The notes beneath the pieces were generated by a model that did not search any database, was not told the DNA's origin, and saw nothing but the letters and a program-made list of their open reading frames with translations. Positions 773-27,608 of a DNA stretch of 41,354 nt are shown here, one piece after another. This DNA is from a virus: positions 1-41,354 of IMG/VR virus record IMGVR_UViG_3300010274_000001; one strand, written 5' to 3'. Made by a program: the position numbers and the translations under genes. Every line of letters starts with the position of its first letter. The first letter of the stretch is position 1.

Positions 773-1876
773 ATGGCAGAGTTATTTAGACCTATATCAC
801 CTGATAAACAAACTTTAGGCCAAGCACCAACTAATAGAGATAACCTTAAGGACCTTTTTACCTTAGAAGTACTATCATATTTCTATAAAAAGAACATCTT
901 TAGACCACTATTAAGAACTAGAGACATTCCTGAAGGTAATAAGTCTGCAGTGTTCGAGGTTTCTGGTAAGGCAGCAAAAGGTGTCTTATTTAGACCAGGG
1001 GACACTTTGGACAAAAAAGGAGTGCCCCATGCACGCAAAATCATCAACATTGATGGCTTAGTTGTAGCCAGTGACTGGATATTCAAGCTTGATGATTGGC
1101 TAGCACATTGGGATGTAAGGAATGAACATGCTCAAGCTTTGGGAGTTCAATTGGCTGAAGCAGTGGATAGGAATTTATTTGCGTCCGTATTGAAAGCTGC
1201 AGCAACCAACAAAGCGCTGGTGAAGAATCCTGATGGCACTGAAAAAACATTAAGTGGCAAAGTTATAAACATGCCTGATACTTCAGGTATTGTAAAGGTA
1301 TCAGACATAGATTCCAAAGATGACGTTATATTGTTCTTTGAAGCCGTGAGAAAAGCTAGGACAACATTTAGAAAGATGAATGTATACGACCAGGAGTTAT
1401 ATCTTGCAATATCACCTTCAATGTATGAGAAGTTATTTAACTATCTTGACCTAATTTCTGCAGACTACAAGGGTTCTGGTTCTATAGCTGAAGGTGAATT
1501 GCCACGATTGTTTGGTTTTAACATTGTTGAGTCCAATGTATTCTATGAAGGTGAAGGTGATGATAACGATTTGGGTGAACTTGACACAGACACAGGACCA
1601 GAATATAAAACAGCAACCATTGGGGAAGATTGGTCTGGTGACGGTGGGATAAACCACAAAGTTACAGTTAAAGGTGGTGGCTTATTAGCCGTTGCATTTA
1701 CCCGTGATGCTGCTGCTATGGTAAACTTGAAAGATATTTACGTTGAAGAAGACTATGATATCAAAGAGAAAGCCACCTATATCACTGCTGACCTTGCTGC
1801 AGGATTTGACTCCTTCCGCCCAGAATGTGCGATAGCAATAATGGGTAAGGGTGGTTCATTGGTATTACCTAGCTAG
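773..1876 (+). CDS. Major capsid protein, T7 gp10-like
   Basis: KIINIDGLVVASDWIFKLDDWLAHWDVRNEHAQALGVQLAEAVDRNLF parallels T7 gp10 KVITIDGLLTADVLIYDIEDAMNHYDVRSEYTSQLGESLAMAADGAVL. The C-terminal FRPECAIAIM matches LRPEAAGAVV. It has an SD (aaaaaggggg) and is followed by a strong terminator. Confidence 0.93.
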   Translation: MAELFRPISPDKQTLGQAPTNRDNLKDLFTLEVLSYFYKKNIFRPLLRTRDIPEGNKSAVFEVSGKAAKGVLFRPGDTLDKKGVPHARKIINIDGLVVASDWIFKLDDWLAHWDVRNEHAQALGVQLAEAVDRNLFASVLKAAATNKALVKNPDGTEKTLSGKVINMPDTSGIVKVSDIDSKDDVILFFEAVRKARTTFRKMNVYDQELYLAISPSMYEKLFNYLDLISADYKGSGSIAEGELPRLFGFNIVESNVFYEGEGDDNDLGELDTDTGPEYKTATIGEDWSGDGGINHKVTVKGGGLLAVAFTRDAAAMVNLKDIYVEEDYDIKEKATYITADLAAGFDSFRPECAIAIMGKGGSLVLPS

Positions 1877-2080: not shown

Positions 2081-2135
2081 GATATTTTAGTAAGGAATGT
2101 TTAGGGAAAGACATAATCTGAAAGGAGGCTATATT

Positions 2136-4775
2136 ATGACCCGTGAAGAAGCTGTAAAACGTGTTCTATTGGTAGTTGGAGAAAATCCTATTACTGTATC
2201 CCAAAATGATGAAGTTTATCAGATGGCACAGCAGCTATTAGATATGATAACTCTTGATGTATTAGGAATGGGATGGCGTTTTAATACACACTATCTTGAA
2301 GATGGAACGGAGGCAATAGACACTTATGTAGTTGATGTTGATGATTACACTACTGAAGAAGACCTTTTTAATGCTAACTTTGCTGCTATTCCAGTTCACA
2401 TACAGCAAGTTATAGTAGCTAGGACAAGTTATGAATTTTCTTTAGGCTATACTGGTGAAAACTTATTTAGTGAAGACCTTAGTAAGATGTATCTTATGGC
2501 TTTACAGCAAGCTAGAGGCACTGAAGTTATGCTTAGTGCTGAATTGATTGACTTTGAACGCATTTATAAGAACGTAGCTAGCCAGTTATTGAATGAGGAG
2601 GGCTGGTGGTGGAATACTACAGAGACTGGAGAAGACTTTCAGACCAATATACCCTTAAATCTGCCACCAATTGCCGACAGTTATGCTAAAATTAAGGCTC
2701 AAAGGCTATTTCAGGCTTATAATACAGCTAATGTAGAGTTAATGTTAAATCCAACGCCTGAAGAAAAGGAAATATATGCCCAAATGGTTAAGCAAAATAG
2801 GCGACATTTTCTGCGTTCACTACCTGTTGAGGAGTTAAGAGACTCTTATATTAACGAATTAAGGGCTGAAGGGATTACTTCAGCGCTTACATACGATGAA
2901 GCAAGATTCAGTGATGCTCTTGCAGCGTCATATGCTGACATTAAAGCTAAGCGAATGTACATGTTGGTAACCGAAGAAGACAATAGGGAAGCTTATATTA
3001 ATCCTTCACAGGATGAAATTAACCTTTATACACGCTTAAAGGCACGTCAACTAAACAAAGTTAGTCATTTTGATGACCTAGAAGCACTAACACAGGAAAT
3101 AGAAGACCAGCTAAAGAATGAGATAGGCTGGTATTTTAACACTGAGCTGGATGAATTTGGGCAAAAGAAGCTAAAAGAAGTTATAGTATTGCCTGAAGAG
3201 GTTAAAGCATATGCTAAATTAAAGGCACGAAGGTTATTTAATGCTTTCCAGCGTACTGGTGGTGATGCTAATCTTGTAAATACGCCAACGCCTGAAGAAA
3301 CTCAAGCATATCAGCAGCTATGGCTAAAGAATCATAGTTACTGGCTTGAGAGTGAAACTTTGGAACAATTTAGGGATAGCATTATACAGGCTTTAAATTC
3401 CGAAGGGCTTACACAATATTTAAGTTATAGTATTGAAACTAATGGGTTAATAAAACAGTATGCAAACTTAAAAGCTAAAAGATTATATAGCTTATATAAT
3501 TCTATAGACCCTACACCTTTTATTAATGCTACTAAAGAAGAAGAAGATTTATATAAAAGAATATTGATAGAATTAAATAAGCCAACAAAAGTAAATGAAA
3601 GTAATATAGCAGAAGCAGTAGCTTCTTTAACAAAAGTTCCTGCCAATGACCCTTCAATAGTTCATTATGCTCGAATGAAAGCTAATAGGATTAATTATGC
3701 TTATGAAACTGGTAATATGGAATTACTGATAAATATGCCTCCAGAAGAACTTCAAGCATATCAGGCAATACTGTTAAAGTCTAAGCGTGAAAAGTTCAAT
3801 ATAACTTTAGAAAACCTTTATAATGAAATTTTAAACAGTGTGTTAGCTATGTTTCCTAATATCAACGAAACTAATGCTACTGTGGTCGAGTATGCAAACT
3901 TAAAGTCTAGAAGATTATATGCACTGTATACCGAACTAGACCCAAACTTTGCCCAGCAGCCTAATGATGAAACACAATTGTTACAAGAACTTTATAGACA
4001 AAACTTAACATCCGAATTACAGCAAACAACCTATGATGATGTATTAACAGCAATTAGACAACAATTGTTAAATGAGGCTGGTTGGTGGTATAACACATCA
4101 ACCGATGCTGATGGCAATTTAATAACTAGAATACCAGATACATTGCCTGAAATAGTTGAACAGTATGCTGTAGCCAGAGCTAAGCGATTATATAGGGCGT
4201 ATCAGAACAATCAAATGGAACTAATATTGAATCCTTCACCTGAAGAACAAGAGTTGTATTCTAAGATGTTAGAGATGCACAATAGGGTTACTCGTGGTGG
4301 TAAGTCGTTAGAACAACTAAAAAAAGATATATTGACAGAGGTATTATTAGAAGGCTGGAGTTTTAATATTAAAGAACAGCCGTATAGAGAAATTAAAGCA
4401 GCAAATTTAGTATTATTAAAGGCCACTGCATTGTATCCGCAATTAAAAGTATATGTAGATAAAGATAACAAGATTATAGACCATAAAACATATGCTGAGA
4501 TTCCAGAAGAAACTGTAGTTCAAGTTGTACATAAAGTTGCATACGATGAACTGCCTGAGTTATTTAAGTTGTACATTGATATGAAGGCGTCAAGAATGTA
4601 CAACTATTATAACACTATTAATAGTCAAATCAATTCACCACTAGCTTGGGCAAGACCAACTGCGGATGAATTATTGTTGTTTCAGAAACTAAAGACACTA
4701 TATGCTGTAGATATTGAAAATGCGAATATATTAGAAAATGACACACTCCAATATTGGGGGAGGAGATATAGATGA
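2136..4775 (+). CDS. Tail tubular protein A / adaptor (T7 gp11-like), greatly expanded by internal repeats (879 aa)
   Basis: ATG at 2136 follows aaaggagg. The N-terminus VLLVVGENPITVS...AQQLLDMITLDVLGMGWRFNT matches T7 gp11 ILASIGEPPVSTL...[20 protein letters not shown]. The C-terminus ELPELFKLYIDMKASRMYNYY matches [22 protein letters not shown]. There are 8 clear YAxxKAxR(L/M)(Y/F) copies (plus one degenerate copy) and 5 GWxxN copies. Confidence 0.85.
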   Translation: MTREEAVKRVLLVVGENPITVSQNDEVYQMAQQLLDMITLDVLGMGWRFNTHYLEDGTEAIDTYVVDVDDYTTEEDLFNANFAAIPVHIQQVIVARTSYEFSLGYTGENLFSEDLSKMYLMALQQARGTEVMLSAELIDFERIYKNVASQLLNEEGWWWNTTETGEDFQTNIPLNLPPIADSYAKIKAQRLFQAYNTANVELMLNPTPEEKEIYAQMVKQNRRHFLRSLPVEELRDSYINELRAEGITSALTYDEARFSDALAASYADIKAKRMYMLVTEEDNREAYINPSQDEINLYTRLKARQLNKVSHFDDLEALTQEIEDQLKNEIGWYFNTELDEFGQKKLKEVIVLPEEVKAYAKLKARRLFNAFQRTGGDANLVNTPTPEETQAYQQLWLKNHSYWLESETLEQFRDSIIQALNSEGLTQYLSYSIETNGLIKQYANLKAKRLYSLYNSIDPTPFINATKEEEDLYKRILIELNKPTKVNESNIAEAVASLTKVPANDPSIVHYARMKANRINYAYETGNMELLINMPPEELQAYQAILLKSKREKFNITLENLYNEILNSVLAMFPNINETNATVVEYANLKSRRLYALYTELDPNFAQQPNDETQLLQELYRQNLTSELQQTTYDDVLTAIRQQLLNEAGWWYNTSTDADGNLITRIPDTLPEIVEQYAVARAKRLYRAYQNNQMELILNPSPEEQELYSKMLEMHNRVTRGGKSLEQLKKDILTEVLLEGWSFNIKEQPYREIKAANLVLLKATALYPQLKVYVDKDNKIIDHKTYAEIPEETVVQVVHKVAYDELPELFKLYIDMKASRMYNYYNTINSQINSPLAWARPTADELLLFQKLKTLYAVDIENANILENDTLQYWGRRYR

Positions 4776-7672
4776 GCGTATTGAAGACTGATATGATTAT
4801 TCCCAACAAAGGATTAATAAGTGGTGAGCCAGAACTATTAGAGCCAGGTGTACTTACTGATGCTGAAAATGTTATATTACATCCAACATTAGGAATTCAA
4901 ACAAGACCAGGTATATTTACTGATGGAATATTTAGATTAGACAGTGATATAAAAAACATTCGTTTGGTGAAATCATTGAGTGCCAACAAGGATGATTATT
5001 TATTTATCCTTGGTGCTAATACAAATGTTGCACAACCATCAATTTTGTATATTGCCTTAATAGACATTAACAAAAAGTCAATAAAATTTAAGTTATCTAT
5101 AAATAAAAATGTAAACAAAAATTATTATTCTTACTTTATTGATACTACAACAAACGCAATTTTAAATGATGCTAATAAGATTAAATTAACTTTTGAATCT
5201 GGAAAAATTTGGATTGCCAATACAACACAAACTGTAACTTCAACATTACGACTCAGTGAATCCGAAGTTATATCTTTTAAACATAAGATTAATTTTGGAA
5301 AAAATATGAGTGGGGATTTACCAATGATTTATTTAAAAGTTGGCGATGAATATGTATTAATAAGAAGCAATTATACATTAACACCTACTAATGCAAAATC
5401 AGAGTTAATGACTGCAATGAAAAATGAAATTAATCAAATACTATCCAGCTATCCTGGATATACAGTTAGCATTAATGGTGATAATATTGAAATTACTGGT
5501 GGTTCAGGAGTTACACAGTTTATAATATTAGAAAAACAAACACCCGATAATCCTTGGATAGTAAGTGGGATAATACAACCTTCTACGACATATTTATTCA
5601 AGTTTAAACATGGTGATGAATTTGATACATCAGGAATTGGTGGCACTTACTGGGATATATGTAAGTTAAAAGGTAAATTTGTTGGTGACCCAAATGTATA
5701 TACAACATTAACTATAACTCCAGGAAAGGGTGGAGATATAAAGATAAACAGAGGTGGGAAAAGTGTTTCAATAGGTAGTGTTAAAAAGGCAAACGTTAAA
5801 CTTGGAAACAATTTATATGAAACAACTTTTGAATTAACAAGTAGTTTTTATGTTACAGATTTTTATTATGATGATAGAGATTTTTTTGGAGGTTCAGATA
5901 GCAGATGGTATGGATGGTCTGTATGGTATAGTGGACATTTATTAGTAGAAAATTTATCAACATTTATACTTAAAGATGAAAAGTGGCATCATATTAACAA
6001 TCAAGATTATTTAGCTACAAACAATGTAATCAAAAATGAAGTTATAATTAATTATATTAGTGCCCCAGATTCAACTTTATATCATGCTGCTCCAAAAGTA
6101 AATATTACAATTAAAATAGCCAATGAAATATTGTATTCTTCCGATGAATATTTAGATAATTACGGTTATTCATTATATTCAGACACACAACTGATTGATA
6201 TGTTTTATGATAAATACAATTCAATATTTCAAAACTTATCAATTACAATTTCAAAATCTTCAGGTGTTTTAACAATTAATATGCCAAATACTTATTCATT
6301 TATAATAACTTTTCAACAACCTGAGAAAGAAATAAACCTTATATTGGATGATATAGCAAGTACTAAATTTTCTAATGCTGTCTTAGAATTTCAAGAAGCT
6401 TCTTTGCCTTGTTATATTGACATAGATAATTTAAAGTTAGATAGACCACCTTTGTTTAAAACTGGAGCAGTTAATTATAAAAATACAGCAACTGCTTCAT
6501 TACCATCATTTGCAAATAAACACATACAAGATATAAAAATTATTCAAGACCGATTATTTATTCTTAGTGATGAGGCTATAAGTATATCAGAAGTTGGAAC
6601 ACGTGACAAATTTTTCTTGAGTTCGGGTCAAACGTTGGTTGACACAAGTTTTATTGATGCAAAATTTAGTGTAACAAAAGGTACTTTAAAACACTTAATT
6701 TTCCTAAATAAAGAATTTTATATATTTGGTACGCAACAGCAATTTTTATTACATTTTGAAGGTTATATCTCGCCTTTTACAATGCTTATTCAAAATTTAA
6801 CAGACTATCAAATTTCAGATACAACACCAGAAACATTAGGGAATGAAATTTTCTTTGGTAATAAAACAACAGTGTCTCAGGCTTTTGAAAGACACATGTT
6901 GTATTCGTTCTTTGTTCAGCCAAATACATATACAAACAAAGCTGAAAATAAAAGTTGGATGATTAGTGACCTTATGCCAACAAAAGTAAATCAAATTGTG
7001 GCTATTAATGACAAAGTAATTTTAACTTATTCTGAGCCTAATAACAACTTTACTTCAGCAATGGTATTTCATAGATTTACAAACAACCTTGAGGTAATTC
7101 AAGAGGGTTGGACACGGTGGAAATTTCCAACTGATTTAGGATTGTGGCATATTAATTCTGTTGGTGATGTTTTGACAATAAAGGCAGAGCCAACTGGTCT
7201 TCAAGGTCCTAGTGATGCACAATATGTTCTTCTATTTTATAAAATCCCACTTGAGCAAGATGTTGCAAATGCTTTATATGATGAAATTTACACTTCATAT
7301 ACTGGTGAAAAAACTTTAAAAGATATTAAAGCTAAAATATCATTGCCAATTTTTACTAAAGATATTCCACCATATTTGAGGGCAAGGTTGGACTTTGTCC
7401 ACCTAATCTTTGATAAAGAATTCACTGGATATGTCTATTATGGACAGGATGGTGTTATTTCCGAAGTACTTGGAACGATTAATAATGTTATATATGCTTC
7501 AATACCTATTAGAAAATATGCTAGAGGAGCTGAAATAATTATAGAAGCAGCTTCAGTAATTGAAGGTAATCCTAATTTTGAAAATGAAGTTAATTTATTA
7601 GCCAATCCTTTGAATTTGATGGGATTTGGCGCTGAGTTTCGTGTATGGAATCGCAAATATGGTAAATACTAA
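4772..7672 (+). CDS. Tail tubular protein B / nozzle (T7 gp12-like), 966 aa
   Basis: ATGA start/stop overlap with the upstream gene. The N-terminus PNKGLISGEPELLEPGVLTDAENVILHPTLGIQTRPG matches T7 gp12 NLKGGISQQPDILRYPDQGSRQVNGWSSETEGLQKRPP. Its position after the gp11-like gene fits. Confidence 0.8.
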   Translation: MSVLKTDMIIPNKGLISGEPELLEPGVLTDAENVILHPTLGIQTRPGIFTDGIFRLDSDIKNIRLVKSLSANKDDYLFILGANTNVAQPSILYIALIDINKKSIKFKLSINKNVNKNYYSYFIDTTTNAILNDANKIKLTFESGKIWIANTTQTVTSTLRLSESEVISFKHKINFGKNMSGDLPMIYLKVGDEYVLIRSNYTLTPTNAKSELMTAMKNEINQILSSYPGYTVSINGDNIEITGGSGVTQFIILEKQTPDNPWIVSGIIQPSTTYLFKFKHGDEFDTSGIGGTYWDICKLKGKFVGDPNVYTTLTITPGKGGDIKINRGGKSVSIGSVKKANVKLGNNLYETTFELTSSFYVTDFYYDDRDFFGGSDSRWYGWSVWYSGHLLVENLSTFILKDEKWHHINNQDYLATNNVIKNEVIINYISAPDSTLYHAAPKVNITIKIANEILYSSDEYLDNYGYSLYSDTQLIDMFYDKYNSIFQNLSITISKSSGVLTINMPNTYSFIITFQQPEKEINLILDDIASTKFSNAVLEFQEASLPCYIDIDNLKLDRPPLFKTGAVNYKNTATASLPSFANKHIQDIKIIQDRLFILSDEAISISEVGTRDKFFLSSGQTLVDTSFIDAKFSVTKGTLKHLIFLNKEFYIFGTQQQFLLHFEGYISPFTMLIQNLTDYQISDTTPETLGNEIFFGNKTTVSQAFERHMLYSFFVQPNTYTNKAENKSWMISDLMPTKVNQIVAINDKVILTYSEPNNNFTSAMVFHRFTNNLEVIQEGWTRWKFPTDLGLWHINSVGDVLTIKAEPTGLQGPSDAQYVLLFYKIPLEQDVANALYDEIYTSYTGEKTLKDIKAKISLPIFTKDIPPYLRARLDFVHLIFDKEFTGYVYYGQDGVISEVLGTINNVIYASIPIRKYARGAEIIIEAASVIEGNPNFENEVNLLANPLNLMGFGAEFRVWNRKYGKY

Positions 7673-7698
7673 TAAGTTTGAAGGGAGGTATAATTGAT

Positions 7699-8211
7699 AT
7701 GGCTAATCCTTTTGCTACGTATAGAGCAAGCAAACGATATAATGAAGAATTGGCTAGGATGCAGCAGGAACTATGGGATAATCTAAAGATACAAATAGGA
7801 ATGTTATCTGAACAAAGAAAACAAATGTTAGCCAGTGCTAATCAAGATATTGTCCAACGGAAAATGCAAGGTTATCAAACTCAGCAAGCAACTATAGCTA
7901 GACAGTTAGCTATGGGATTAGGTGCTGGTGGAGGCACTTTATCAGCTGTTCAAGGTAATCTTCAGCAAGCGGTAGCTCAAGACGTGGGTATTATTCAGTC
8001 TAATTTAGCTAACTATCTTGCTCAGACACAATATCAGCAACAACTGATGCAAAGGGAAACAATGTACCAATATTCACAGTATGAGTCACAAAAGCGTAAG
8101 CCAGGATTAGATGCTTTAGAAGCCACACTAGGATTGGTAGCAAATATTGCTTCATTAGACTGGAGTAAACTTGGAGACTTGCTGTCTCCATTATTGTTGA
8201 AAGGAGGATAA
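7699..8211 (+). CDS. Putative internal virion protein (gp13/gp14 position), Q-rich, 170 aa
   Basis: ATG at 7699 follows gaagggagg. The call rests on synteny (after gp12-like, before gp15-like) and the Gln/Gly-rich composition only. Confidence 0.5.
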   Translation: MANPFATYRASKRYNEELARMQQELWDNLKIQIGMLSEQRKQMLASANQDIVQRKMQGYQTQQATIARQLAMGLGAGGGTLSAVQGNLQQAVAQDVGIIQSNLANYLAQTQYQQQLMQRETMYQYSQYESQKRKPGLDALEATLGLVANIASLDWSKLGDLLSPLLLKGG

Positions 8212-8215
8212 ATAT

Positions 8216-10678
8216 ATGGCAGCATTGACTACAACAGAACGTTTAGAAACGCCAGAACTTCCTAAAGAAGAAAGTTTTTATAAAGCCACGACACCTAGCA
8301 TGAAGGTATTTGCCCAACCGTTAAGTATGCCTGTAGATGCTAGTGGTGTTTATGGTGTGCAGCAAACATCCAGTGAGATTGCACAGAAGGCTGAGATATG
8401 GTCTTCTTTGGTAAAAACAACAGCTACAATTACACCATTATTGAATAAAATACAAGAAGAGAATAAGCGTGTGCAACAAATAGAAGGATGGATGACAGCT
8501 GCTTCTGGAGGACAGCTGGATGAGAAAGCTTCAAAATCAATGATGCAAGGATATTATCAATACACTGCAGAGTTGGATTATTCAATCTTCAATAGTTCTA
8601 TGCAAGAATATTATCAGCAAAATAAGATGCAATGGGAAAGTCCTGAAGAAGTACAAAAGGGATTAAATGAATTTTTGAATGAATGGCTGCTAGCTAGACC
8701 TTCCAATGATTATTATTTAGAAACATTTCTTCCACACGCATTGGATATTCAACAATCACTAATAAATGATTGGACACAACAAAAGGTGCAACAAATAAAT
8801 GATGATATAGTTGCAACATCAGTGGCTGGTGTTCAAAATAAAGCTGATGCTTATATTCAGGCTGGTTTACAAAAGTTTTTAAATGTTCCAAATATAAACT
8901 TATTTGATAGTAGTTTTGCTTTTGATACATTAGAGATTACTAATGAATTTAATGAATTCTTAAGATTTGGTTTATCAGAAGTACAAAAAGAAGCAAAAGC
9001 AATGAATTTAACCAGACTTGATGTATCTCAAATATATATTAACCGTATTGGTGAACTTGCAGTAGCATATGGTATGCCTGAATTGTTGGATTTTACAGAT
9101 ATTCCAGATGAGAATGGTATTAAACTTAATCAAACAGTATTTTCAAACACAATTAATCAATATAGAACTGAAGCAATGAAAGTTAAACAATCAAAGATTG
9201 AACAGCAATCCAAAGCACAAGAAGCAATGGACAACGAAACTGTTGATTTATTGTACAAACAATGGTATTATGATATTTCTGATTTTTTAAATGCTTCAAA
9301 ATTTGACCCAACTAGCAAAGTAAGATTTGAAAAGTATTTTAGAGAGGAAGTACTTAACAATGAATATTTATATAAATTAAGTGATAGTAGATTTGCTAAT
9401 ATAATAAATATGGCTAATGAAATATTGTATAACGAACACACATATTCTCAAGTAAGTAATGAAAGAACATTGGCTGAATTAGACAATGCGTTCTATAAAG
9501 GCAAATTAACGGAAGAAATGGTTACACAAGAGTTGCTTAGTAATAATTTATCTTTGAAGGATTACCAAAATTATATGAAGAAATTAAATGATGCAAAAGA
9601 ATTGGAAAATAAACAAGTTCAACAATGGTTAAATGCAAAAACTATTGCAGCTTATGAAGTATATGGAATAACAGAGAATGAATGGATACAAGCTTTAAAT
9701 ACCCAAAACTTTAGTCCTGCTGAAATTGATAAAATTACTGGTATAATGCTTTCACAAAGAGAAGCGGAAGCTAAGACATTAGAAGATTATGAGAAACAAA
9801 AACTTATGGAAGAAGAAGCAATGAAAGCAATGCAACGAAAGGAAAACTATTTAAACTTAAAAAACAGATTAGCTAAGAATGAATTCATTAAACCTGAAGA
9901 AATTATAGAAATGTATGCTTCCAATGAACTTGAAGCTACTGATGCTGACAAGTTATTAGGGACTGTTTATTCTATGATAGATGATGTAAAAACGTTTAAA
10001 ACTAGAAATTTTGATAAGATGATTGAAAAAACAATACAAATGTATGCTGGGTCAATTTATGCCACAATATGGAATAGTGAACTTGAAGCTATTTTATATG
10101 AGAAAGCGAATGAACTTGCAACACAATTTTATGAAATAAATGATTTAACCAGCCCTGATATTCACATATTATTCAGAGACCAAGTATTGACACCATTAGA
10201 GGAATACGCACAACAATATACGTCTTCAGGTGAACTTGGACAAAAGACAATGAGTATGGGTGCAACATATGAAGAGATGTTAAAGAGTTTTGAAGAAGAT
10301 AAGAAGAGCACTGAACCATTTTGGAAAAAGGCTTTTAATAAGCTTTTTGGTAAGGAAGAAGAAATTACAACAAATGCTTATATTTCACCTAATGATGAGT
10401 TATATTCTAACATAACCAATTATACATTGCCTGATGTGATTAGAGAATTAGAAACAGCTGGTTTAACAACTATTGATGCCAAAAGTATAGCTTATGATGA
10501 GACTAGAAACTTCATTGTAGAAAAATTGAAAGCTGGAGCAGACCCTGCAAAACTTCAGATTTATTTAGTTACACAAAAAGGCTTTACAGATGCAGAAGCA
10601 CGAAAAATTATAACTGAAGTTATAAAAACTTATGGCGCAGATTTGATGAAGTCTCCGTATGTTCCGCAACAAAAGTAA
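8216..10678 (+). CDS. Putative internal virion / core protein (gp15 position), 820 aa, helical
   Basis: SD aaaggagg. Size and position match T7 gp15 (747 aa). I recognised no catalytic motif. Confidence 0.55.
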   Translation: MAALTTTERLETPELPKEESFYKATTPSMKVFAQPLSMPVDASGVYGVQQTSSEIAQKAEIWSSLVKTTATITPLLNKIQEENKRVQQIEGWMTAASGGQLDEKASKSMMQGYYQYTAELDYSIFNSSMQEYYQQNKMQWESPEEVQKGLNEFLNEWLLARPSNDYYLETFLPHALDIQQSLINDWTQQKVQQINDDIVATSVAGVQNKADAYIQAGLQKFLNVPNINLFDSSFAFDTLEITNEFNEFLRFGLSEVQKEAKAMNLTRLDVSQIYINRIGELAVAYGMPELLDFTDIPDENGIKLNQTVFSNTINQYRTEAMKVKQSKIEQQSKAQEAMDNETVDLLYKQWYYDISDFLNASKFDPTSKVRFEKYFREEVLNNEYLYKLSDSRFANIINMANEILYNEHTYSQVSNERTLAELDNAFYKGKLTEEMVTQELLSNNLSLKDYQNYMKKLNDAKELENKQVQQWLNAKTIAAYEVYGITENEWIQALNTQNFSPAEIDKITGIMLSQREAEAKTLEDYEKQKLMEEEAMKAMQRKENYLNLKNRLAKNEFIKPEEIIEMYASNELEATDADKLLGTVYSMIDDVKTFKTRNFDKMIEKTIQMYAGSIYATIWNSELEAILYEKANELATQFYEINDLTSPDIHILFRDQVLTPLEEYAQQYTSSGELGQKTMSMGATYEEMLKSFEEDKKSTEPFWKKAFNKLFGKEEEITTNAYISPNDELYSNITNYTLPDVIRELETAGLTTIDAKSIAYDETRNFIVEKLKAGADPAKLQIYLVTQKGFTDAEARKIITEVIKTYGADLMKSPYVPQQK

Positions 10679-10691
10679 AGGAGGTATAAAT

Positions 10692-12155
10692 ATGCAATTA
10701 TCCCCAGAGCAAATTGCTACTTTAAATGAAGAAATATATTCAGAATTATTACCAACATATTTAGACTTAATAGACCAACATTTCAAAGAAATTAATCCTG
10801 ATGTGTCAAAGTTAGCTAAACCTGGTACAGAAGAGCGCCAAAAGCAAGAACAATTTATACTAAATGTTTTAAAAATAGCTGATGAAGAAGATGTTGACCC
10901 ATTGTTACTGTTAAATTTATCAGCTACTGAATCAACACTGGGATTAGATAAAGGGAAAATTGGAAATGCATTTCAAATTTATAAAAGTACATGGGAATCA
11001 GCGAAAAGTTATTTTTCCTTACACAAATATTTATTTGAAGATGAAAAATTACCTGATATTTTAACCAAAACCATTGATGAAATTAATGGAAACACCGAAA
11101 ATGAAGTAAAAGCTGCAATTTATGTTTTAAGATATTCAGCTTTAAATGCTTTACATTCTGCTGGAATGAAAGATAATAGAGATGTTATAACTGGAATTTA
11201 TGAACATGCCAATAAAGCACTAAAGGAGCCAGAAAAATCTGACTATGATGCAATATTAAATTTAATGATTGCGACTTATCGTAATGGTGCTGGAAATTTA
11301 TATGGTTCAGATGTTGGAAAAAAATTTCAGAAAGATATTGTTTTATCAGACCCTAGTCTCAAAGGTGATGTTGCTACTGTTATAAAAAATATTAATGAAA
11401 CAGTGCCAAAATATTCTGATATGTTCAAAATTACCACAGCAGATAATTTAGAAACACTGAATGATTATAATACTAAAGTAAGGCCTAATGTTACTGAAAA
11501 AGAACTAATTACTACGAAAGAAGCTGAGGTTACACAAACAAAAACTCAAGAATATATTGCAAAATCAGAAAAATTAAAATTAGCTGAAATACCAGTTGAA
11601 CCAGAAACAATTACACCAGAAGCTGCCGAAACAATTCATCATCCTTTTCAAGCACCAACTAATGTACAATTAACATCTTCAAAAGATACTCTTAAAGAAT
11701 TTTATGAAAATTTAAGCAAAATTCAACAACCTGAAGTAAGTATGGAAGCTGCTAAAGTAGAAGAAACAATTCCAGAGTCTCCAAAGATGCCGACTAGTAA
11801 AGACATATTTTCTAAACCTTTAAGCATAGATTTAAAAGCAAAACCTATACTTTTTAAAGATGTTGTAAAGGAAGTATATAAAGAAGATTTAGAAACTATA
11901 ATATCACAGCAACCAAAATTACCTTCAGAAGCTGTAGATTTTTTATTACTTTCTGCAGTAGAAGAGCCACCTCAGAAAGAACAAACAGTAATAGAAGTTC
12001 CCACTAGACGTACTCCAGATTATGAACAATATGAACCTGAAATATGGCGTTTGAAAATTGGTACTGTTAAACCGCTTGGAGTAAAGAAACAGGAAAAACG
12101 AAAAGCCACCAAACGTACACAGTTATTGGAGCAAAAAATGTATGGGGGTGAATAA
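10692..12155 (+). CDS. Virion-associated lytic transglycosylase (SLT domain) with a Pro/Glu/Lys-rich C-terminal half
   Basis: ATG at 10692 follows aaaggagg. SLT-type motifs are present: LSATESTLG (catalytic E-S), GNAFQIY (GLMQ-like) and IATYRNGAGN (AYNxG-like). In T7 this domain is the N-terminus of gp16. Confidence 0.7.
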   Translation: MQLSPEQIATLNEEIYSELLPTYLDLIDQHFKEINPDVSKLAKPGTEERQKQEQFILNVLKIADEEDVDPLLLLNLSATESTLGLDKGKIGNAFQIYKSTWESAKSYFSLHKYLFEDEKLPDILTKTIDEINGNTENEVKAAIYVLRYSALNALHSAGMKDNRDVITGIYEHANKALKEPEKSDYDAILNLMIATYRNGAGNLYGSDVGKKFQKDIVLSDPSLKGDVATVIKNINETVPKYSDMFKITTADNLETLNDYNTKVRPNVTEKELITTKEAEVTQTKTQEYIAKSEKLKLAEIPVEPETITPEAAETIHHPFQAPTNVQLTSSKDTLKEFYENLSKIQQPEVSMEAAKVEETIPESPKMPTSKDIFSKPLSIDLKAKPILFKDVVKEVYKEDLETIISQQPKLPSEAVDFLLLSAVEEPPQKEQTVIEVPTRRTPDYEQYEPEIWRLKIGTVKPLGVKKQEKRKATKRTQLLEQKMYGGE

Positions 12156-12158: not shown

Positions 12159-15100
12159 ATGCCTATAACTTTAGCACAAAACCAACCAGAAGAACAAATA
12201 AATGCACCAGTTTTAAAAACTGAAGAAGATAAACAACTATCTAAGAAAGAGCAGAAGCAACTAAGTACTGCAATGGGTGTTGTATATCCTATGATGCAAC
12301 CAGAACAAACACAGCTAGAAAAGACTTTATGGCAGATTTCAGATTTTATAACCATTATGTCAGATTCAATCCTTTATAGAACACCGACTTTAGATACAAC
12401 ACTTTCCCCTACAGCCCAAATGGTTGCTTCTTATGCTGGTAGTTTAAGTAGAGATATAATATTGACAATGGCAGGATATACAGCTGTTGATGCTTTAACA
12501 AGAAGTATTAGTGGCATATCATGGGTTAATAAAGCTTTGCGTTCAATGCCTTCGTTAGTCTATGAAGGGATAAGAGGTGCTGCAGCAGGTGCTGTAAAAA
12601 CAGGTTTTAGTAAGATGTTAAATCCTGATATAGATTGGTATTACACAGCAATAAGTGTTGCTGAATATGGCGGTGGTGATTTTTCACGTGAGCTTACTAA
12701 TATAATTTTGAGAAAGACGTCACTTAGTCCAGTAACTAAAGAAATACTAGCATATGCTGCAGATGTTGTTGGTGGGGCTACAGCAGGATTAGCGATACAT
12801 GGAGAAATAGATGACTTTGCAAAAGAAGTTATCAGTGTTCAAGCTGTTGCTATGGGTGTAGTTGATGTTTTACTTAGTGGTGCACTTACTGGAGGTCCTA
12901 AGTTATCGGTTGATGATGTGTATATTAAAGAGTTACAAACAATAAAACAACAATTAAGTGCAGGAGAAATGGACCCTTTTGTAGCATTAAATAATGTTGA
13001 TGCTCTAGCAAAAGTTTATGACTTGGATGCAAAAGCTATTGTGGATAGTTTCGAATATAATTTTAAAGAAGATTTAACAAAAAATGTTGATAAGTTAAAA
13101 GCAGAAATGGTTGAGTCCATAATTTCTAAGAAAGTTGAAGTCACACCTAAAGAAGCTGAGGCTATTTCTAAAGTAGCTGAAAAATTACCTGAAACTCCTG
13201 AAGGTGTACCATTAGTAACTCCAGAAGAAGGAGGACCAATAAATACACTAAGATTAAATACTGAACCTGAAGTTATAAAAGAAGTTTATGACATGGCTGA
13301 AGCTATTGAAGAAGCACAAGGAAAACCAAAGATAACATTTGAAGAAGCTAAAAAGATAGTTGGTGCTGAAGCTGAACCGTTAAAAACTATGACTCCTGAA
13401 GCTTTGGCAGATGAATTAGGAATAGTTTTAGACAATGCTAAAGCACTATCTAAAGCTTTAGAAACCGCACCAACTGAAGTACTAAAATATAGAGATACTG
13501 TAGTTAATTTAGGAACAATTATCCAAAAGTATGCAATAGACTTAAATAATAAGCTTTCACAAGGAATAGAAGTTCCCGAAGCAGACAAAATTAAGCTAAC
13601 AGAATTGTTGACAATCCAACATTCATTGGTTTCTGATGTGAAAAATATATCTACTAAAGTAGCACAGACGTTATCATTAATGGGAGCTGAAGTTGATGGA
13701 AAGTTAGTAGACTTCAGTAACCTTACTGATGCTGATTTATTTAGGTCACAAGATGCACAGTGGTTATATGAGGGAGTAAAGAAAGCAAACATATCAACAG
13801 ATGATTTTGAAGTTTTGGTAGCTAAAATTGCCAATGCAGAAAGCATTGCTGATGTTAATCAAGCGTTGATTAAGTCACCATTTAGTAAACGTTTGATTGA
13901 CTTTCTTGTTGATTATAAAACCATGAATATTTTGACTAATTTTAATACTCACAAACGTAATGTGGTATCACAGGCTGCCAATCAACTATATGATATTATG
14001 GTTGATTATATGGCAGCATTTACAGGAAAAATTTCAGGTAGTGATGCTATAGCTTTTAAAGATGTTAATAACAAACTTTTAGGAATATTAGAAGGAATGA
14101 CTAATGGATTAGCACGACCAGTAGTTGGTGTGAAAGATATGTATGGCATTATGCATGCTAAAGAAAATCCTAGCTCCTTAGATGTTTTAGGACTAATGAT
14201 GTTTAAGCCTCAAGAGTTCAACAAATATCTAGAAATGACACAGATTGAAGGAACTAAAGCTAAACTAGAGCAAGTAGAAACACAAGCACCAATGCATAAA
14301 CTATTTGGTGATGCTGCTGAGAAAAGCACATTTTTAGGATTTTTAGCTGATGTATCAGATTATACTTTAGGTCATATGCGTACTTTTAGTTATGGTATGC
14401 TAGAATTTACAGATAGACCATTTGCCTATGGTGCATATACAGGGGAAGTGAGATTTACATTATCACAGTTATCAAGAATGAATCCAGATATGGAATTAGA
14501 TACCAAAGCTTTAACTAATGCAGCTGTTGAATATCGTGGTGTTAAAAATGTATTTGATAAAGTACAATATTATGCTCAGACACAAAAAGGGCTGTCTTTA
14601 GAAGAGAGTTTAGAATGGACAAAAAATGCATTAATTCAACAGGAATTCAAACCAGAAATTATTGATTATGTTATTAAAGAGAAAACTAATCCTAATGCTT
14701 TAGCCAGCGATACAAATTATAATTTAATAAAGTATTTGGATTCAATAGGGATAGAAAAAGCCACAAAAATGACTTGGAAAAGTGAATTAGAGTTTAATAT
14801 AAACAGAACAATAGAACAAGGTTTAAACAATATAAAACTTTTAAAACTTATTCAACCTTTCTTCCATACACCTGCTGCTATCATTGAAAAGGGTACAGAA
14901 GTTATGGGGGTTAGACCCAGTTTATGGCAGAAAGCTTTTAATAGTAGCAATAAGTTAGACCAACAAAGAGCAATAGGGGCTTTAGCAACATCAGGACTTA
15001 CATGGTTAGGAGCAGTTATGTTGTATTTAGAGGGTAGATTAACACCAACATCACGTGATGAATATGAGCAAAGAATGATGTCTGAAGCTGGTATTCAGGA

Positions 15101-15905
15101 AAATTCAATCAAAATAAAAGATAAATGGGTGAACATTAATACATTAGACCCATACCCTGCTTTTGTGTTTACTACTGCAGCCAATCTTGCTAGAGCTTTA
15201 GAAGAAACACAAGACCCTGAAAAGTATGAAGAATTTACTGATTACGTGCAACAATTTCTTTGGATTAATGCTAACAACCTTATGAATAAAACGTATTTTG
15301 AAAGTTTGGCGGATTTTTTCAATGCTTTAGTAGGGGTTAATCCCGAAAATTATATTAAAAACTTTGCACAGTCTTTTAAACCGTTCTATGGTCTTAATAA
15401 ATATTTTCAGCAAACATTTCAAAAATATTATGTTGATGTTAATGGAAAAGTGATGAAAAATATGCCTCAGTTAGATAGTTATGGGAAACCAATCATACAA
15501 TATGATTACGTAATGGGGCTTAGGGCATCTACAGAAAGTGAATCTCCAATAAGAAAAGAAATGGCAAAACTAGGATATAAGATACCAAGAATGAATAACA
15601 CAGTTGATGGAATTAATTTAGACCCTGAATTGTATTATATGATGTTAAAATATTTGGATGTGGGTTTACATATGGAAGATAAATTAAACAATATTATTTC
15701 TCAAAAATCATATGAGAAACTACCTGATAAAACTAAAATTCAAGTCTTAGATAGTGCTGTTAAGCGATTTCATGAAGAAGCACGTAATTTTGCTAGAAGT
15801 GTACTTGCTAGCCAGGGGACTTATCAGCAGGAAATACTTCAAAAATTTGAACGTAAACAGCAACCAGTAATAAAGCCACCCTGGATAAAAGAGGAGGGAA
15901 AATAA
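12159..15905 (+). CDS. Large internal virion / ejection protein (gp16 position), 1248 aa
   Basis: SD gggggtga. Size (T7 gp16 is 1318 aa) and position fit. It has hydrophobic Gly/Ala-rich segments near the N-terminus and another near residue 990. Confidence 0.6.
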   Translation: MPITLAQNQPEEQINAPVLKTEEDKQLSKKEQKQLSTAMGVVYPMMQPEQTQLEKTLWQISDFITIMSDSILYRTPTLDTTLSPTAQMVASYAGSLSRDIILTMAGYTAVDALTRSISGISWVNKALRSMPSLVYEGIRGAAAGAVKTGFSKMLNPDIDWYYTAISVAEYGGGDFSRELTNIILRKTSLSPVTKEILAYAADVVGGATAGLAIHGEIDDFAKEVISVQAVAMGVVDVLLSGALTGGPKLSVDDVYIKELQTIKQQLSAGEMDPFVALNNVDALAKVYDLDAKAIVDSFEYNFKEDLTKNVDKLKAEMVESIISKKVEVTPKEAEAISKVAEKLPETPEGVPLVTPEEGGPINTLRLNTEPEVIKEVYDMAEAIEEAQGKPKITFEEAKKIVGAEAEPLKTMTPEALADELGIVLDNAKALSKALETAPTEVLKYRDTVVNLGTIIQKYAIDLNNKLSQGIEVPEADKIKLTELLTIQHSLVSDVKNISTKVAQTLSLMGAEVDGKLVDFSNLTDADLFRSQDAQWLYEGVKKANISTDDFEVLVAKIANAESIADVNQALIKSPFSKRLIDFLVDYKTMNILTNFNTHKRNVVSQAANQLYDIMVDYMAAFTGKISGSDAIAFKDVNNKLLGILEGMTNGLARPVVGVKDMYGIMHAKENPSSLDVLGLMMFKPQEFNKYLEMTQIEGTKAKLEQVETQAPMHKLFGDAAEKSTFLGFLADVSDYTLGHMRTFSYGMLEFTDRPFAYGAYTGEVRFTLSQLSRMNPDMELDTKALTNAAVEYRGVKNVFDKVQYYAQTQKGLSLEESLEWTKNALIQQEFKPEIIDYVIKEKTNPNALASDTNYNLIKYLDSIGIEKATKMTWKSELEFNINRTIEQGLNNIKLLKLIQPFFHTPAAIIEKGTEVMGVRPSLWQKAFNSSNKLDQQRAIGALATSGLTWLGAVMLYLEGRLTPTSRDEYEQRMMSEAGIQENSIKIKDKWVNINTLDPYPAFVFTTAANLARALEETQDPEKYEEFTDYVQQFLWINANNLMNKTYFESLADFFNALVGVNPENYIKNFAQSFKPFYGLNKYFQQTFQKYYVDVNGKVMKNMPQLDSYGKPIIQYDYVMGLRASTESESPIRKEMAKLGYKIPRMNNTVDGINLDPELYYMMLKYLDVGLHMEDKLNNIISQKSYEKLPDKTKIQVLDSAVKRFHEEARNFARSVLASQGTYQQEILQKFERKQQPVIKPPWIKEEGK

Positions 15906-19887: not shown

Positions 19888-20019
19888 ATGGAGCAGTTAA
19901 CTAAAGATATTTACTTAGCAACGATGGATGAAGAAGATAAAGAAAAGATGGCTCGATGGCAACAGGAATTGGAAGAAAGTTTTAAGAAAGAAACACAGAA
20001 GAATAAAGGAGGTAAATAA
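19888..20019 (+). CDS. Either a small ORF (43 aa, no SD) or the distal part of an 80-codon -1 frameshift extension of the 19511 gene
   Basis: The frame is open from 19768 to 20016 with no ATG/GTG/TTG before 19888. Neither internal ATG has an SD, although nearly every other gene here has GGAGG. Confidence 0.35.
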   Translation: MEQLTKDIYLATMDEEDKEKMARWQQELEESFKKETQKNKGGK

Positions 20020-20020
20020 T

Positions 20021-23000
20021 ATGGCAAACGTAATAAAGTTTAAACGTGGAACTACAGCTAATGTTGCAAAATTAAATGGAGTAGACCTGCCACTATTACA
20101 AGAAGGTGAAATAGCAATTGATATCACTACAAAAACAATCAAAGTTGGAGATGGTCTTACTGCCTGGAATAATCTAAGAGGTATCAACGCTGATACTTTA
20201 GATGGTTTTCATGCTAGTCAAAACGCCGATGCTAATAATGTAGCAGTTAGAAATGCTGATGGCAAATTGGTTGGAGACATCTTAGGCAACTCTGAAACAT
20301 CTACTAAACTTAAGACGTCACGAACATTATCACTCAGTGGTGACGCCACTGGTAGTGCTTCTTTTGATGGTTCGGCAAATGCTACAATAGCAACTACTGT
20401 TAATAATGCTGCTCAAGCTGCTAAACTTACTACAGCTAGAATTATAGCACTCAGTGGTGATGCTTCAGGTAGCACAACTTTTGATGGTTCAGCTAATGTC
20501 ACTATATCAGCTACAGTCAATGATTCAGCCAAAGTAGGAGGATATAGTCCTTCAGAAACTGTTGAAGCTAGTACAGTTCCTGTAAGAGATGCTAATGGGG
20601 CTTTACCAGGGAATATAACTGGAAATGCTGCTACAGCTACAAAATTGGCTACAGCAAGAACTATAGCACTCAGTGGAGATGCTAGTGGCAGTGTCACTTT
20701 TGATGGCACTGCAGATAAGACTATATCTACTACAGTGTCTCAAGCGGCTAAGCTTAAAACACCTAGAACGATAACCTTAAGTGGTGACGTAAGCGGCAGC
20801 ACTAGCTTTGATGGTTCTACAAATGTTACAATAAGCTCTACAGTCAATGATTCAGCTAAAGTAGGAGGTTACAGTCCAGCTACAACAGCTACAGCTAATG
20901 CTGTTGCTGTTAGAGATGAAAACGGTAAATTGGCTGGGGATATATTGGGAAACGCAGCCACTGCTACTTTAGCTGCTGATGCTACAAAATTAGCAACGGC
21001 AAGAACTATATCACTCGGTGGCAACGCTTCAGGTAGTGCCAATTTTGATGGAAGCGCTAATGTTACTATATTAGCAACAGTCAATGATTCAGCCAAAGTT
21101 GGTGGATATAGCCCTTCAACAACTGCTACAGCCAATGCTGTTGCTATTAGAGACGCTAACGGTAAATTGGCTGGAGATATCACTGGAAATGCAGCTACTG
21201 CTACTTTAGCAACCAGTGCAGATAAGTTGACTACAGCAAGAACAATTACACTTAGCGGAGGTGTCACAGGTAGCACAAACTTTGATGGTTCTACTAACAC
21301 AACCATAGTAACAAATGTAACTGGTGACAGTCATTATCATACAATATCAACAATAACAGATATAGCCAATGCTAGTGTTTCGCAAGCTAATAATGCGACT
21401 AAATTAAACAATTATAGCCCGTCTACATCAGCTACACCTAGTACAGTGGCAGTTAGAGATACCAATGGTAAATTAGCTGGAGATATCACTGGAAATGCTG
21501 ATACTGTCGATGGATTCCATGCTAGCCAAAGCGCTACAGCTAATAGCATTGCTGTGAGGGACGCTAGTGGTAAACTAGCGGGCGATATTACTGGAAATGC
21601 TGCTACTGCAACTAACGCTAGCAAGTTAGCAGGCTTACTTCCTTCTACAATTAATGAACCAAACACAGTTGTTGTAAGGGATTCAGATGGTAACATAGTT
21701 GGTGGCACTATTGTTGGACAAATTGATAGCGCAGACAAAGTTGATGGCTTTCACGCTAGCCAAAGTGCTATACCCAATAATGTAGCTGTAAGGGATGCTA
21801 ATGGTAAGCTTCCAGGTAATGTTTTGGGTCATGCTGAAGCTACATATGAAGAGCTAATAGAGCTTTCGGAGGATGTAGATGACGTTATAGGTTTTGCAGG
21901 TTATGAAGGTTCTGGTATATTAGGGTTAGAGTGGGATGTACCTAGTGGAACAGTAAGAAGACTGGGAGCTGCTGTAGGTAAGAATGGTGGCGCAGACTTT
22001 GACCAATATAATATGTATGGTGGGCGTAAGCGCTGTATTTTAACCGATGATGGCGTCCGTCTTGCTTACTATGGTGAGCCCGGATTTACTGAGACAGGTA
22101 AGCTTGAGGAAGAACTTACTATAGGAGGTGTAACTTATCCAGTAGGCACTCCTGTTCAGGTGATGGTGGAACAACCTGTGTTTTGGTATAAGACGGTACC
22201 ATTGAAATTTAAAAAGATACCAGGGCAAGATGGGCTAACTGTCCAAAAAATACGTTACTATATTTCTGATACAGCTAGACCGGGCTTTAAACGACATCCA
22301 GCATTTTATACTAGGACTCCCGATAGAAAACCTGTAAATTATATATATTTAGGAGCTTACGAAGGCTGTACCTATGATAGTTCAACTGGTGAATATCTTT
22401 TGAATGATGAATCTGGAATAGATTTTAACAACGATAAATTGTCTTCAATAGCTAATGCTATCCCAACTTCTACAGCTAATAACTTTTTCAGATTCACTAG
22501 CGCACAACAATTAGTTAAAAATAGAGGTAATGGTTGGCAATTAAATGATATTTTTTCTTTATCAGCAATACAAATATTATTTGCTATAGAATATGGTTCG
22601 TTTGATTCACAAGCAATGCTAGGAAACGGCGTGAATGGTCGTATATCTACCGGGTCTACATCAACATTTGGAAATGTATCTGGTGTAAGCCAGAATAATG
22701 CTATAACTTATAGAGGACAGGAAAATTTATGGGGAAATACTGAAGAATTAATAGACGGAGTAAATATATATGCAACAGGGACAAAAGTTAAAGCATATAT
22801 ATCTTATTATGATTTTGAGGCTGCTAAAGATGCCAAACCTTATTTTGACGTGGGCTTTGATTTGGCTACAGGAAATAATTATATTAGTGCTATAGGTTGG
22901 TCTGAAATATGCGATTTTACATTTTTGCCAACAGAAAACGAAGGTCTTGCAAGTAAACCACTTCATGATGTTTATTTTTCTGCTGTTCAAGCACAAGGTT

Positions 23001-25239: not shown

Positions 25240-25941
25240 TTAGTCAAACTTAGATATTAGTGCTCTCTTTTCCACCAGCTCACGATACTTAGGATTCTGT
25301 AGCTTCTTAGTGTCCGTTAGTGCCTCAAACATTTCATGAGGAGAGCTAAAGGGTACTATATCTTCCCTGGTATTAGCACTACCGTCAATGTATCCTCCTG
25401 AAACTTGTTGAGTATTAGCAAGATACTGAGCTTTCAATCCTAATAAAGCCCATTTCATGACCTTAGGGTCTCCAGAAAGCATAAGTGCATTAAACTCCTC
25501 CCTTTCTTCCTTAGACAGTGTTTTGTTTGCCCACTCAGCCATGTTAGTAAATGTACCTTTGCCACCAACGGTATCATAAAGCTTGTCTAAGATAGCGTCT
25601 GCTTCTGAGCGCAGACCTTTGATAGCCAACTGTAGCTCTGTCTTAGTAAACCCTTTGTCTAAAAATGGTTTTAAGTCATCATCGCTAAGATTATCCTTGT
25701 AAATTAGTGATTGCAATTCTGGTAGTATATCATCTATAGCTACCTTAGTCTTCTCTTTCTCTTCCTTTACTTGCGGGGCTTCTTCAGTGGATAGCAAAGG
25801 TTTTACTGGAGCTTCTTTAGCTTCTTCAGGTTTAACTTCTGCTGCTTCTTGAGGCTGAGCTTCTACTGCCTTTTCTTCTTTAACCTCTTGAGCTTCCACC
25901 AATTCTTTACCTTCTTCTAACCCAATTTTTCTTTCCTCCAT
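25240..25941 (-). CDS. Scaffolding protein (gp9 position), 233 aa, acidic E/K/P-rich N-terminus
   Basis: It lies immediately downstream of the portal gene, with ATG at 25941 following ggaggtg. The call rests on composition and synteny. Confidence 0.7.
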   Translation of the reverse strand: MEERKIGLEEGKELVEAQEVKEEKAVEAQPQEAAEVKPEEAKEAPVKPLLSTEEAPQVKEEKEKTKVAIDDILPELQSLIYKDNLSDDDLKPFLDKGFTKTELQLAIKGLRSEADAILDKLYDTVGGKGTFTNMAEWANKTLSKEEREEFNALMLSGDPKVMKWALLGLKAQYLANTQQVSGGYIDGSANTREDIVPFSSPHEMFEALTDTKKLQNPKYRELVEKRALISKFD

Positions 25942-25942
25942 A

Positions 25943-27427: not shown

Positions 27428-27608
27428 TCTTATCCTCCTCCTTTAGATTATATAATTCCAAGCAAGCGTCAATAAGTTCACGCTTGCCCGCATACATCCA
27501 TATAGTTCTATCATTATCTGCAATATTTGGACATTTAGGTGGATATAGCTTGTCTAAATATTTCACTAGGTCTTCTGCAGACAATGGGATTCCTATTCTA
27601 TCTTCCAT
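27393..27608 (-). CDS. Hypothetical 71-aa protein, first gene after module C'
   Basis: SD aaaggaggtg. It overlaps the portal start by 35 nt. No family recognised. Confidence 0.6.
   Translation of the reverse strand: MEDRIGIPLSAEDLVKYLDKLYPPKCPNIADNDRTIWMYAGKRELIDACLELYNLKEEDKNGRVEGNFFEK

Follow-up and report, generated by a model that had tools for sequence, protein, structure and literature searches.

A T7-type tail adaptor of a marine phage enlarged to nine modules by serial duplication of its own helical core

Few parts of the tailed-phage virion are as uniform as the adaptor, which has one small helix bundle per subunit and twelve subunits per ring; in phage T7, the first 50 residues of the nozzle protein gp12 are part of the platform that binds the adaptor, and the fibre sits between a dock on the adaptor and a dock on the nozzle. 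The T7 adaptor gp11, or tail tubular protein A, consists of a four-helix bundle (α1-α4), a β-structured fibre dock and a C-terminal helix that embraces the portal; acidic residues of its α1-α2 loop bind the gp12 platform, and the protein clamps the portal with its dock, its embracing helix and the C-terminal end of α4 (PMC6702177). Adaptors of this type (Pfam PF17212; PDB 6R21, 7BOX, 7EY7, 5MU4, 7Y1C, 8VB4 and 9VVR) have 180-210 amino acids (aa) and one bundle, whereas the adaptor examined here, which shares with them the gene position between capsid and nozzle, has 879 aa and nine bundle cores. It is encoded by a stretch of 41,354 bp (IMG/VR record IMGVR_UViG_3300010274_000001), hereafter called the window. 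An initial annotation of the gene had proposed that a gp11-type adaptor was lengthened about 4.5-fold by its own repeated helical core, and this proposal was borne out by the sequence motifs, by profile comparisons and by a series of module numbers among relatives.

Repetition within the protein was assessed through motif counts, unit-against-unit alignment and profile searches. The motif GW[RWYS][FWY]N was found five times (aa 46, 156, 331, 649 and 740) and YAxxKAxR(L/M/I) eight times (aa 183, 266, 359, 442, 511, 586, 677 and 813), each copy of the latter being followed by a helix of the (N)P(T/S)xEE type; a degenerate first copy was confirmed at aa 89-101. All motif positions given in the initial annotation were correct, its numbering (counted from position 2097) being that of the 879-aa protein plus 13. 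When the protein was shuffled 5000 times with its composition preserved, the mean count was 0.0002 for the GW motif and 0 for YAxxKAxR. The protein was cut into nine units (U0-U8), and pairs of units were scored by Smith-Waterman alignment against shuffles. The Z scores were 37 for U1/U7, 25.6 for U3/U7, 24 for U1/U3, 19.7 for U1/U5 (the b and c helices of U5 most resembling those of U1), 18.5 for U2/U4 and 12 for U4/U6, and each internal unit scored 2.5-7.5 against U8. U1-U7 align end to end through a helix a, an optional GWxxN motif with a β-hairpin, a helix b (YAxxKAxRLY) and a helix c (NPxPEE..Y), and a hidden Markov model (HMM) of the unit gave E-values of 1e-23 to 1e-34 per unit. Internal units that contain the GW motif are referred to as type A and those without it as type B. 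The gene and its modules, all on the plus strand, are as follows.

2122..2128, +: Shine-Dalgarno sequence AAGGAGG for the start at 2136
2136..4775, +: expanded gp11-type tail adaptor gene; 879 aa, 102 kDa, isoelectric point 4.8
2136..2525, +: U0, aa 1-130; α1, α1-α2 loop, α2 with GWRFN, and a conserved short hairpin THYLEDGTEAIDT
within 2136..2525, +: remainder of U0; α3-like helix, GYTGEN loop, α4-like helix
2178..2213, +: sole α1-α2 loop of the chain, aa 15-26, GENPITVSQNDE, placed by alignment to PDB adaptors
2526..2804, +: U1, aa 131-223, type A; helix a, GWWWN, β-hairpin, YAKIKAQR helix and NPTPEE helix
2805..3059, +: U2, aa 224-308, type B, without GW motif or hairpin
3060..3332, +: U3, aa 309-399, type A
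3333..3581, +: U4, aa 400-482, type B; first unit of the U4-U6 block that is duplicated in a 1102-aa allele
3582..3794, +: U5, aa 483-553, shortened, GW motif lost
3795..4007, +: U6, aa 554-624, type B
4008..4289, +: U7, aa 625-718, type A; matches Pfam Tube positions 32-53 (E 0.0012)
4290..4772, +: U8, aa 719-879; α2' with GWSFN, a single fibre-dock β-domain, α3' LYIDMKASRMY, α4' PTADELLLFQKL and a C-terminal tail
4368..4535, +: single-copy fibre-dock β-domain, aa ~745-800; strands predicted with a local distance difference test score (pLDDT) of ~80-87, aligning to the T7, Kp9 and KP32 docks

The chain is thus α1 followed by nine α2-x-α3-α4 modules, in which x is a full dock solely in U8. In the other eight modules, the dock position holds a β-hairpin in the GW-containing units and nothing in the rest. 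U0 carries a net charge of -15 and matches Pfam Tube positions 2-51; its α1-α2 loop (VGENPITVSQNDE), in which G15, E16, P18 and D25 are invariant across the family, corresponds to the loop of T7 gp11 that contacts the gp12 platform through acidic residues. U1 is the most conserved part of the adaptor, with 74-76% identity to relatives that have five modules. U8 has neither α1 nor the GExP loop and is preceded by a conserved four-residue R-G-G-K (R-G-x-K) turn coming from U7; its α3 and α4 span aa 806-856, and the tail (aa 857-879) was predicted with low pLDDT. The initial annotation had regarded the reiterated helices as being of a fibre-docking type. Their repetition is real, but the repeated YAxxKAxR helix is the bundle helix α3, a hallmark of the Pfam family, and no fibre-docking element; multiple tiers of fibre attachment, which had been suggested on that basis, are unsupported, since the dock occurs once.

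The descent of these modules from gp11 was examined at the level of the whole protein, of the two ends and of the internal units. The whole protein matched Pfam Tube with 48.3 bits (cut-off 22.3; E 1.4e-12) and phrog_446 with an E-value of 3.3e-16. In a search against solved structures, aa 5-52 aligned to α1, the loop and α2 (residues 15-64) of the Kp9, KP32 and T7 adaptors, and aa 736-825 to the end of α2, the dock and α3 (residues 54-145), so that the N- and C-terminal gp11 signatures noted at the outset were both upheld; these alignments put the fibre dock between α2 and α3. When a profile of U0 from six relatives was compared with canonical full-length gp11 using hhalign, the probability was 98.2% (E 3.3e-14), and the alignment ran through α1, the loop, α2 and GWxFN, skipped the dock, and continued through α3 into the α3-α4 loop. 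U0 is a complete gp11 bundle in which the dock is reduced to a hairpin. Likewise, a profile built from 17 internal units of six proteins matched the family's canonical C-terminal module with a probability of 98.3% (E 2.5e-14), aligning α2 with GWxFN, skipping the dock, and aligning α3 and α4. An HMM built from U1-U7 of the window alone also matched aa 801-853 at 1.8e-7, and the equivalent region of relatives at values down to 5e-11.

One result weighs against this descent: compared with distant canonical gp11 without the family's U8, the internal units gave a weak match (hhalign 11%, E 0.0028), which nevertheless falls on the homologous α3-α4 segment. Because matches to distant gp11 alone are weak, the link of the internal units to gp11 rests on the family's own canonical module. 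Piecewise Pfam scans recognized U0 and U8, recognized U1 and U7 weakly and recognized no other unit, and the internal-unit profile gave chance-level matches and no adaptor among PDB sequences. The structure prediction of the monomer, which the initial annotation had listed as a check, returned the expected helix pattern with the global arrangement at low confidence: in the full-length AlphaFold2 model, each unit was predicted as helix, hairpin, helix and helix, and β-strands were confined to residues 745-799. In Foldseek searches with this model and with the model of a three-module relative, the top matches were all T7-type adaptors, at a probability of 1.0; the P22 and Sf6 adaptors were weaker matches. 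On this combined evidence, the adaptor was enlarged by in-frame serial duplication of its own helical core.

Comparison with gp11 homologues in related genomes, another of the checks proposed at the outset, turned up intermediates with two, three, four and five modules. Expanded adaptors are rare. When 1.84 billion representative proteins were scanned with HMMER, nine were returned at E <= 0.001, eight of the adaptor family and one spurious (P0068; 1335 aa with 17 identical repeats), which was rejected, and a profile search of 5.8 billion proteins yielded six members of the expanded family. Tblastn searches of INPHARED (50,697 phage records) with the 879-aa protein and the three-module relative found no expanded relative, and no cultured phage with one was found. 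The 120 canonical-type relatives listed had 178-271 aa, and 118 of them had 178-209 aa. In the relatives, the adaptor gene directly follows the capsid gene and precedes the nozzle gene in every contig that reaches that far. The length series is as follows.

193/203 aa: canonical, one module (P0069, P0067)
271 aa: U0+U8, two modules (P0070)
362/368 aa: U0+A+U8, three modules (P0066, P0065)
445 aa: U0+A+A+U8, four modules (P0064)
547/565 aa: U0+A+B+A+U8, five modules (P0047, P0048)
879 aa: nine modules (window)
1099-1115 aa: twelve modules (P0001 type)

U7 is orthologous to the sole internal unit of the three-module relatives (~60% identity) and is therefore the oldest added unit. U3 is the first of four units (U3-U6) that are missing from the five-module relatives and from a 561-aa allele, P0046. 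U3-U6 look like duplications of an A-B pair; the DNA repeat spacings are 528/528 and 456/432 nt. Natural alleles encode adaptors of 561, 879 and 1102 aa, corresponding to five, nine and twelve modules, within flanks that are ~99% identical in DNA. In the 1102-aa allele, U4-U6 are tandemly duplicated over 669 nt, the copies differing at two positions, and the 561-aa allele has an exact loss of U3-U6 with its breakpoint at the ends of two B units. The allele breakpoints lie at unit boundaries, and module number changes by in-register recombination between units. The lengths of gp12, gp14 and gp15 are unchanged beside the 1102-aa allele; the contig of the 561-aa allele stops just inside gp12.

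When the window was compared with two contigs that are ~99% identical to it (L004 and L005), 8 of the 11 amino-acid-changing differences were located at aa 282-526 (U2-U5), mostly in lineage-specific units, and none in U8; by this comparison, the newest units seem the least constrained. In the structure database BFVD, A0A516L4P3 (583 aa) and A0A6J5LSM0 (512 aa) matched the three-module adaptor model over their full length with a probability of 1.0, and A0A516LMG1_2 (761 aa) matched it at 0.84 over 286 columns; these long uncharacterised proteins may, on their predicted structures, be further expanded adaptors.

A second set of expanded adaptors was found in the structural modules of four other IMG/VR contigs:

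2965-4734 of L016: 590 aa, downstream of the capsid gene
2419-3984 of L023: 521 aa, downstream of the capsid gene
2103-4151 of L024: 683 aa, downstream of the capsid gene
284-1933 of L025: 549 aa, upstream of a nozzle match

These proteins consist of an N-terminal dockless gp11 bundle, a coiled-coil-like repeat spacer of ~150-330 aa that is rich in E, K, Q and L, and a complete canonical gp11 at the C-terminus, with its own α1, IGEPPVS loop and dock. Three Pfam Tube stretches were detected in the two that were scanned (L016 and L024). They have in common with the window adaptor the dockless N-terminal bundle, a variable spacer and the docked C-terminal module. However, their spacer is coiled-coil-like, whereas that of the window is made of gp11-derived three-helix units, and their C-terminal module has the α1 and loop that U8 is without. 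The adaptor has been expanded independently in at least two lineages of marine T7-like phages.

How such a chain might be built into the virion was considered next, and a long collar, which had been among the initial suggestions, remains one of two live architectures. We favour a linear array, at a probability of roughly 0.5, in which the protein would hold portal and nozzle apart as a modular spacer, longer or shorter according to the number of repeats. Each three-helix module would start and end at opposite ends of the bundle. Twelve chains would assemble on the portal through U8, U0 would hold the gp12 nozzle, and U1-U7 would act as the spacer, in the form of stacked tiers or rods that lengthen the neck by ~2-3 nm per module. 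An array with opposite binding ends is suggested because the nozzle-binding type of loop is present only in U0 and the dock and C-terminal tail only in U8, ~700 residues apart, and because charge, conservation and module geometry point the same way. The acidity of U0 resembles that of the nozzle-facing side of T7 gp11. U0 and U1 are 67% and 76% identical to those of the five-module relative P0047, compared with 64% for the capsid protein, 59% for the portal and 48% for U8. This conservation is paralleled at the N-terminus of gp12, where the first 50 aa (4772-4921) are 58-68% identical to relatives (68% to the five-module relative) and the next 900 residues 12-52% per 50-residue block. The two-module relative P0070 has no linker between its modules, α4 of the first leading directly into α2 of the second, and end-to-end stacking is favoured for this reason.

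Since the modules derive from a ring-forming bundle, we infer that stacked dodecameric tiers would be a natural form of such an array. One version, a set of concatenated adaptor rings in which twelve chains of n modules form an n-tier tube from portal to nozzle, would provide a podovirus with a longer neck or tail, its length encoded in a single gene by the repeat number; it would allow tubes of 5, 9 or 12 tiers to arise in nature through unequal recombination and would need neither a tape measure nor a tube protein; we put it forward tentatively and regard it as rather unlikely.

Several observations weigh against the linear array. The monomer predictions had low global confidence (pLDDT 64 and predicted template modelling score, pTM, 0.29 for the full-length protein; pLDDT 78.8 and pTM 0.42 for the three-module relative), and Pro or Gly-Gly residues at several unit junctions possibly form turns rather than continuous helices. 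Moreover, the docks of adaptor and nozzle, between which the fibre is held in T7, would be moved apart by a spacer; against this objection, however, the fibre of the window has no detectable T7 gp17 N-domain. Finally, in the second lineage the coiled-coil-like spacer precedes a complete gp11, a layout that more closely resembles an N-terminal appendage, and this would suggest that such appendages recur.

The last point leads to the other live architecture, a peripheral collar or set of whiskers, which we consider a serious possibility, little less probable than the linear array, although at clearly less than even odds. Here, U8 would form a ring of normal height, its missing fourth helix being supplied by helix c of U7 or by α1 of U0, and the modules would project outward as 12 rods or a skirt, with the conserved U0/U1 tip attached to some other partner, such as the capsid, a host surface layer or the long fibre. 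Helix c of U7 could be folded back at the conserved R-G-G-K turn that precedes U8 and take the place of α1. Copy number varies without any change in neighbour gene length beside the 1102-aa allele, the amino-acid differences among near-identical strains fall mostly in U2-U5, and the fibre is very long (1755 aa) and shows no T7 gp17 N-domain that could be detected; these features would also suit a peripheral structure. On the other hand, U8 is without the nozzle-binding α1-α2 loop, the sole copy of which lies at the far N-terminus, and ring closure by α1 of U0 would need the array to return to its origin for odd and even numbers of inserted units alike (1, 2, 3, 4, 8 and 11). U0 and U1 are also more conserved than the capsid protein, and U0 is acidic like a nozzle-facing surface. 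The linear array, which makes direct use of the two separated ends, thus remains our preferred reading.

The integrity of the 879-aa frame bears on all of the above. The frame is open from 2097 to 4775 and would give 892 aa from its first ATG. Because the Shine-Dalgarno sequence lies 7 nt upstream of the ATG at 2136 and homologues begin with MTREEAV, the true start is 2136 and the ATG at 2097 is not the start. No internal in-frame start with a Shine-Dalgarno match of at least 5 nt was found in the adaptor gene, and its stop codon overlaps the start of gp12 (ATGA). The repeat copies have diverged in DNA, their identity reaching no more than 81%, over stretches no longer than 55 nt, and a protein of 878/879 aa recurs in more than 40 independent metagenome assemblies; for these two reasons the frame is not an assembly artefact, as the initial annotation had argued from the divergence of the copies. 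It is very improbable that the long frame reflects faulty assembly or annotation, or that it yields several products through internal initiation, processing or fused genes. The 1102-aa allele does hold a near-identical 669-nt repeat, of a kind that assemblers handle poorly, but the duplication and deletion junctions require reads that span them, and assemblies from both ENA and JGI show the duplication. In addition, the frame stays open across relatives at 50% identity, and one strong Shine-Dalgarno sequence without any internal counterpart favours a single polypeptide.

The initial annotation had named an internal region unrelated to gp11 as grounds for refutation, and profile analysis showed the opposite, a region derived from gp11. 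Weakest of all is therefore the explanation that a normal gp11 received a helical domain of foreign origin at aa 131-718 (U1-U7, ~590 aa), with convergent motifs, which is scarcely credible: U2-U6 are unrecognised in Pfam, PHROGs and PDB sequence searches and match distant canonical gp11 weakly, but the internal-unit profile fits both halves of the canonical module, the weak match itself sits at homologous α3-α4 positions, and stepwise intermediates exist among relatives.

The window is a complete T7-like phage genome, circularly closed or terminally redundant. An exact 107-bp direct repeat occupies its termini (1-107 and 41248-41354), and its two ends are bridged by an independent contig. The genome encodes a T7-type large terminase, and judged by this protein the phage is closest, among those in culture, to pelagiphages and other marine podoviruses (~44% identity). 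The structural genes follow the order capsid, adaptor, nozzle and gp14, and no second adaptor-like ORF (open reading frame) was found in the six frames of the window, so that the 879-aa ORF is its sole adaptor gene. The neighbouring structural genes are as follows.

773..1876, +: major capsid protein, Gp10A-like by profile matches; upstream neighbour of the adaptor gene
4772..7672, +: gp12-type nozzle, translationally coupled to the adaptor gene
7678-8211, +: gp14-like protein
12159-15905, +: the sole internal virion protein family match among the large ORFs downstream of gp14
19928-25195, +: tail fibre, 1755 aa, repetitive, with ~14 repeated stretches matching many fibre PHROGs

The fibre has an Mtd_N domain at aa 36-77, and the T7 gp17 N-terminal tail-attachment domain was not detected in it. 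A 498-aa ORF at 10659-12155 (plus strand), between an 820-aa ORF (8216-10678) and the gene at 12159-15905, had no Pfam or PHROG match. Its counterpart was called as two genes of 64 and 387 aa in the contigs with the 1102-aa allele (L006-L008) and is a single 486-aa gene in L004 and L005. The minus strand from 25240 to 41354 carries scaffold, portal (25943-27427), ribonucleotide reductase, DNA polymerase and primase-helicase genes, and the capsid and tail genes are on the plus strand (773-25195); the two blocks point away from each other at the window ends and towards each other near 25.2 kb. In the five-module relative L002, portal, scaffold, capsid and adaptor genes are collinear on one strand. 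Because the independent contig L004 confirms the divergent junction, the half-genome inversion is real in the lineage of the window.

In our literature search, no published description of an expanded gp11 or tail tubular protein A was found. Here, the adaptor fold has become the unit of a modular array whose length varies, with 1, 2, 3, 4, 5, 9 and 12 modules visible and with length alleles coexisting within one phage population. An axial array would be a new and very simple way to set the length of the tail or neck, and the alleles would be a natural set for testing how the distance between portal and nozzle affects DNA gating and ejection. A peripheral array would be a new kind of collar or whisker made from the adaptor itself. 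In either case, annotation based on length or profiles under-describes "tail tubular protein A".

Among known systems, the adaptors of P22 (gp4), Sf6 (gp7), HK97 and SPP1 are dockless four-helix up-down bundles like U0, and they have been described as lacking the fibre dock (PMC6702177); they are single-bundle proteins, however, with no detectable sequence relationship to the window adaptor. Two analogies are architectural. As in spectrin and α-actinin, tandem three-helix modules of ~70-105 aa are present, their number sets the length, and in P0070 the closing helix of one module passes into the opening helix of the next; no spectrin match was obtained in whole-protein or piecewise Pfam scans, the resemblance being one of architecture only, and unlike spectrin, the window adaptor could assemble laterally into a 12-fold ring. 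For the peripheral alternative, the analogy is with the T4 fibritin (wac) whiskers, a helical appendage of variable length at the head-tail junction; fibritin, however, is a protein of its own, a trimeric coiled coil that attaches to the neck, whereas the array in the window is part of the adaptor chain. The closest system remains T7 gp11, with which the window adaptor shares α1 and the GExP loop, an α2 ending in GWxFN, the β dock, an α3 of the Y....KAxR type, α4 and the C-terminal tail. It shows every gp11-family character for which it was tested save the size of a single bundle, and it differs from T7 gp11 in that the nozzle-binding loop and the portal-binding elements are located in different modules and the number of modules is polymorphic.

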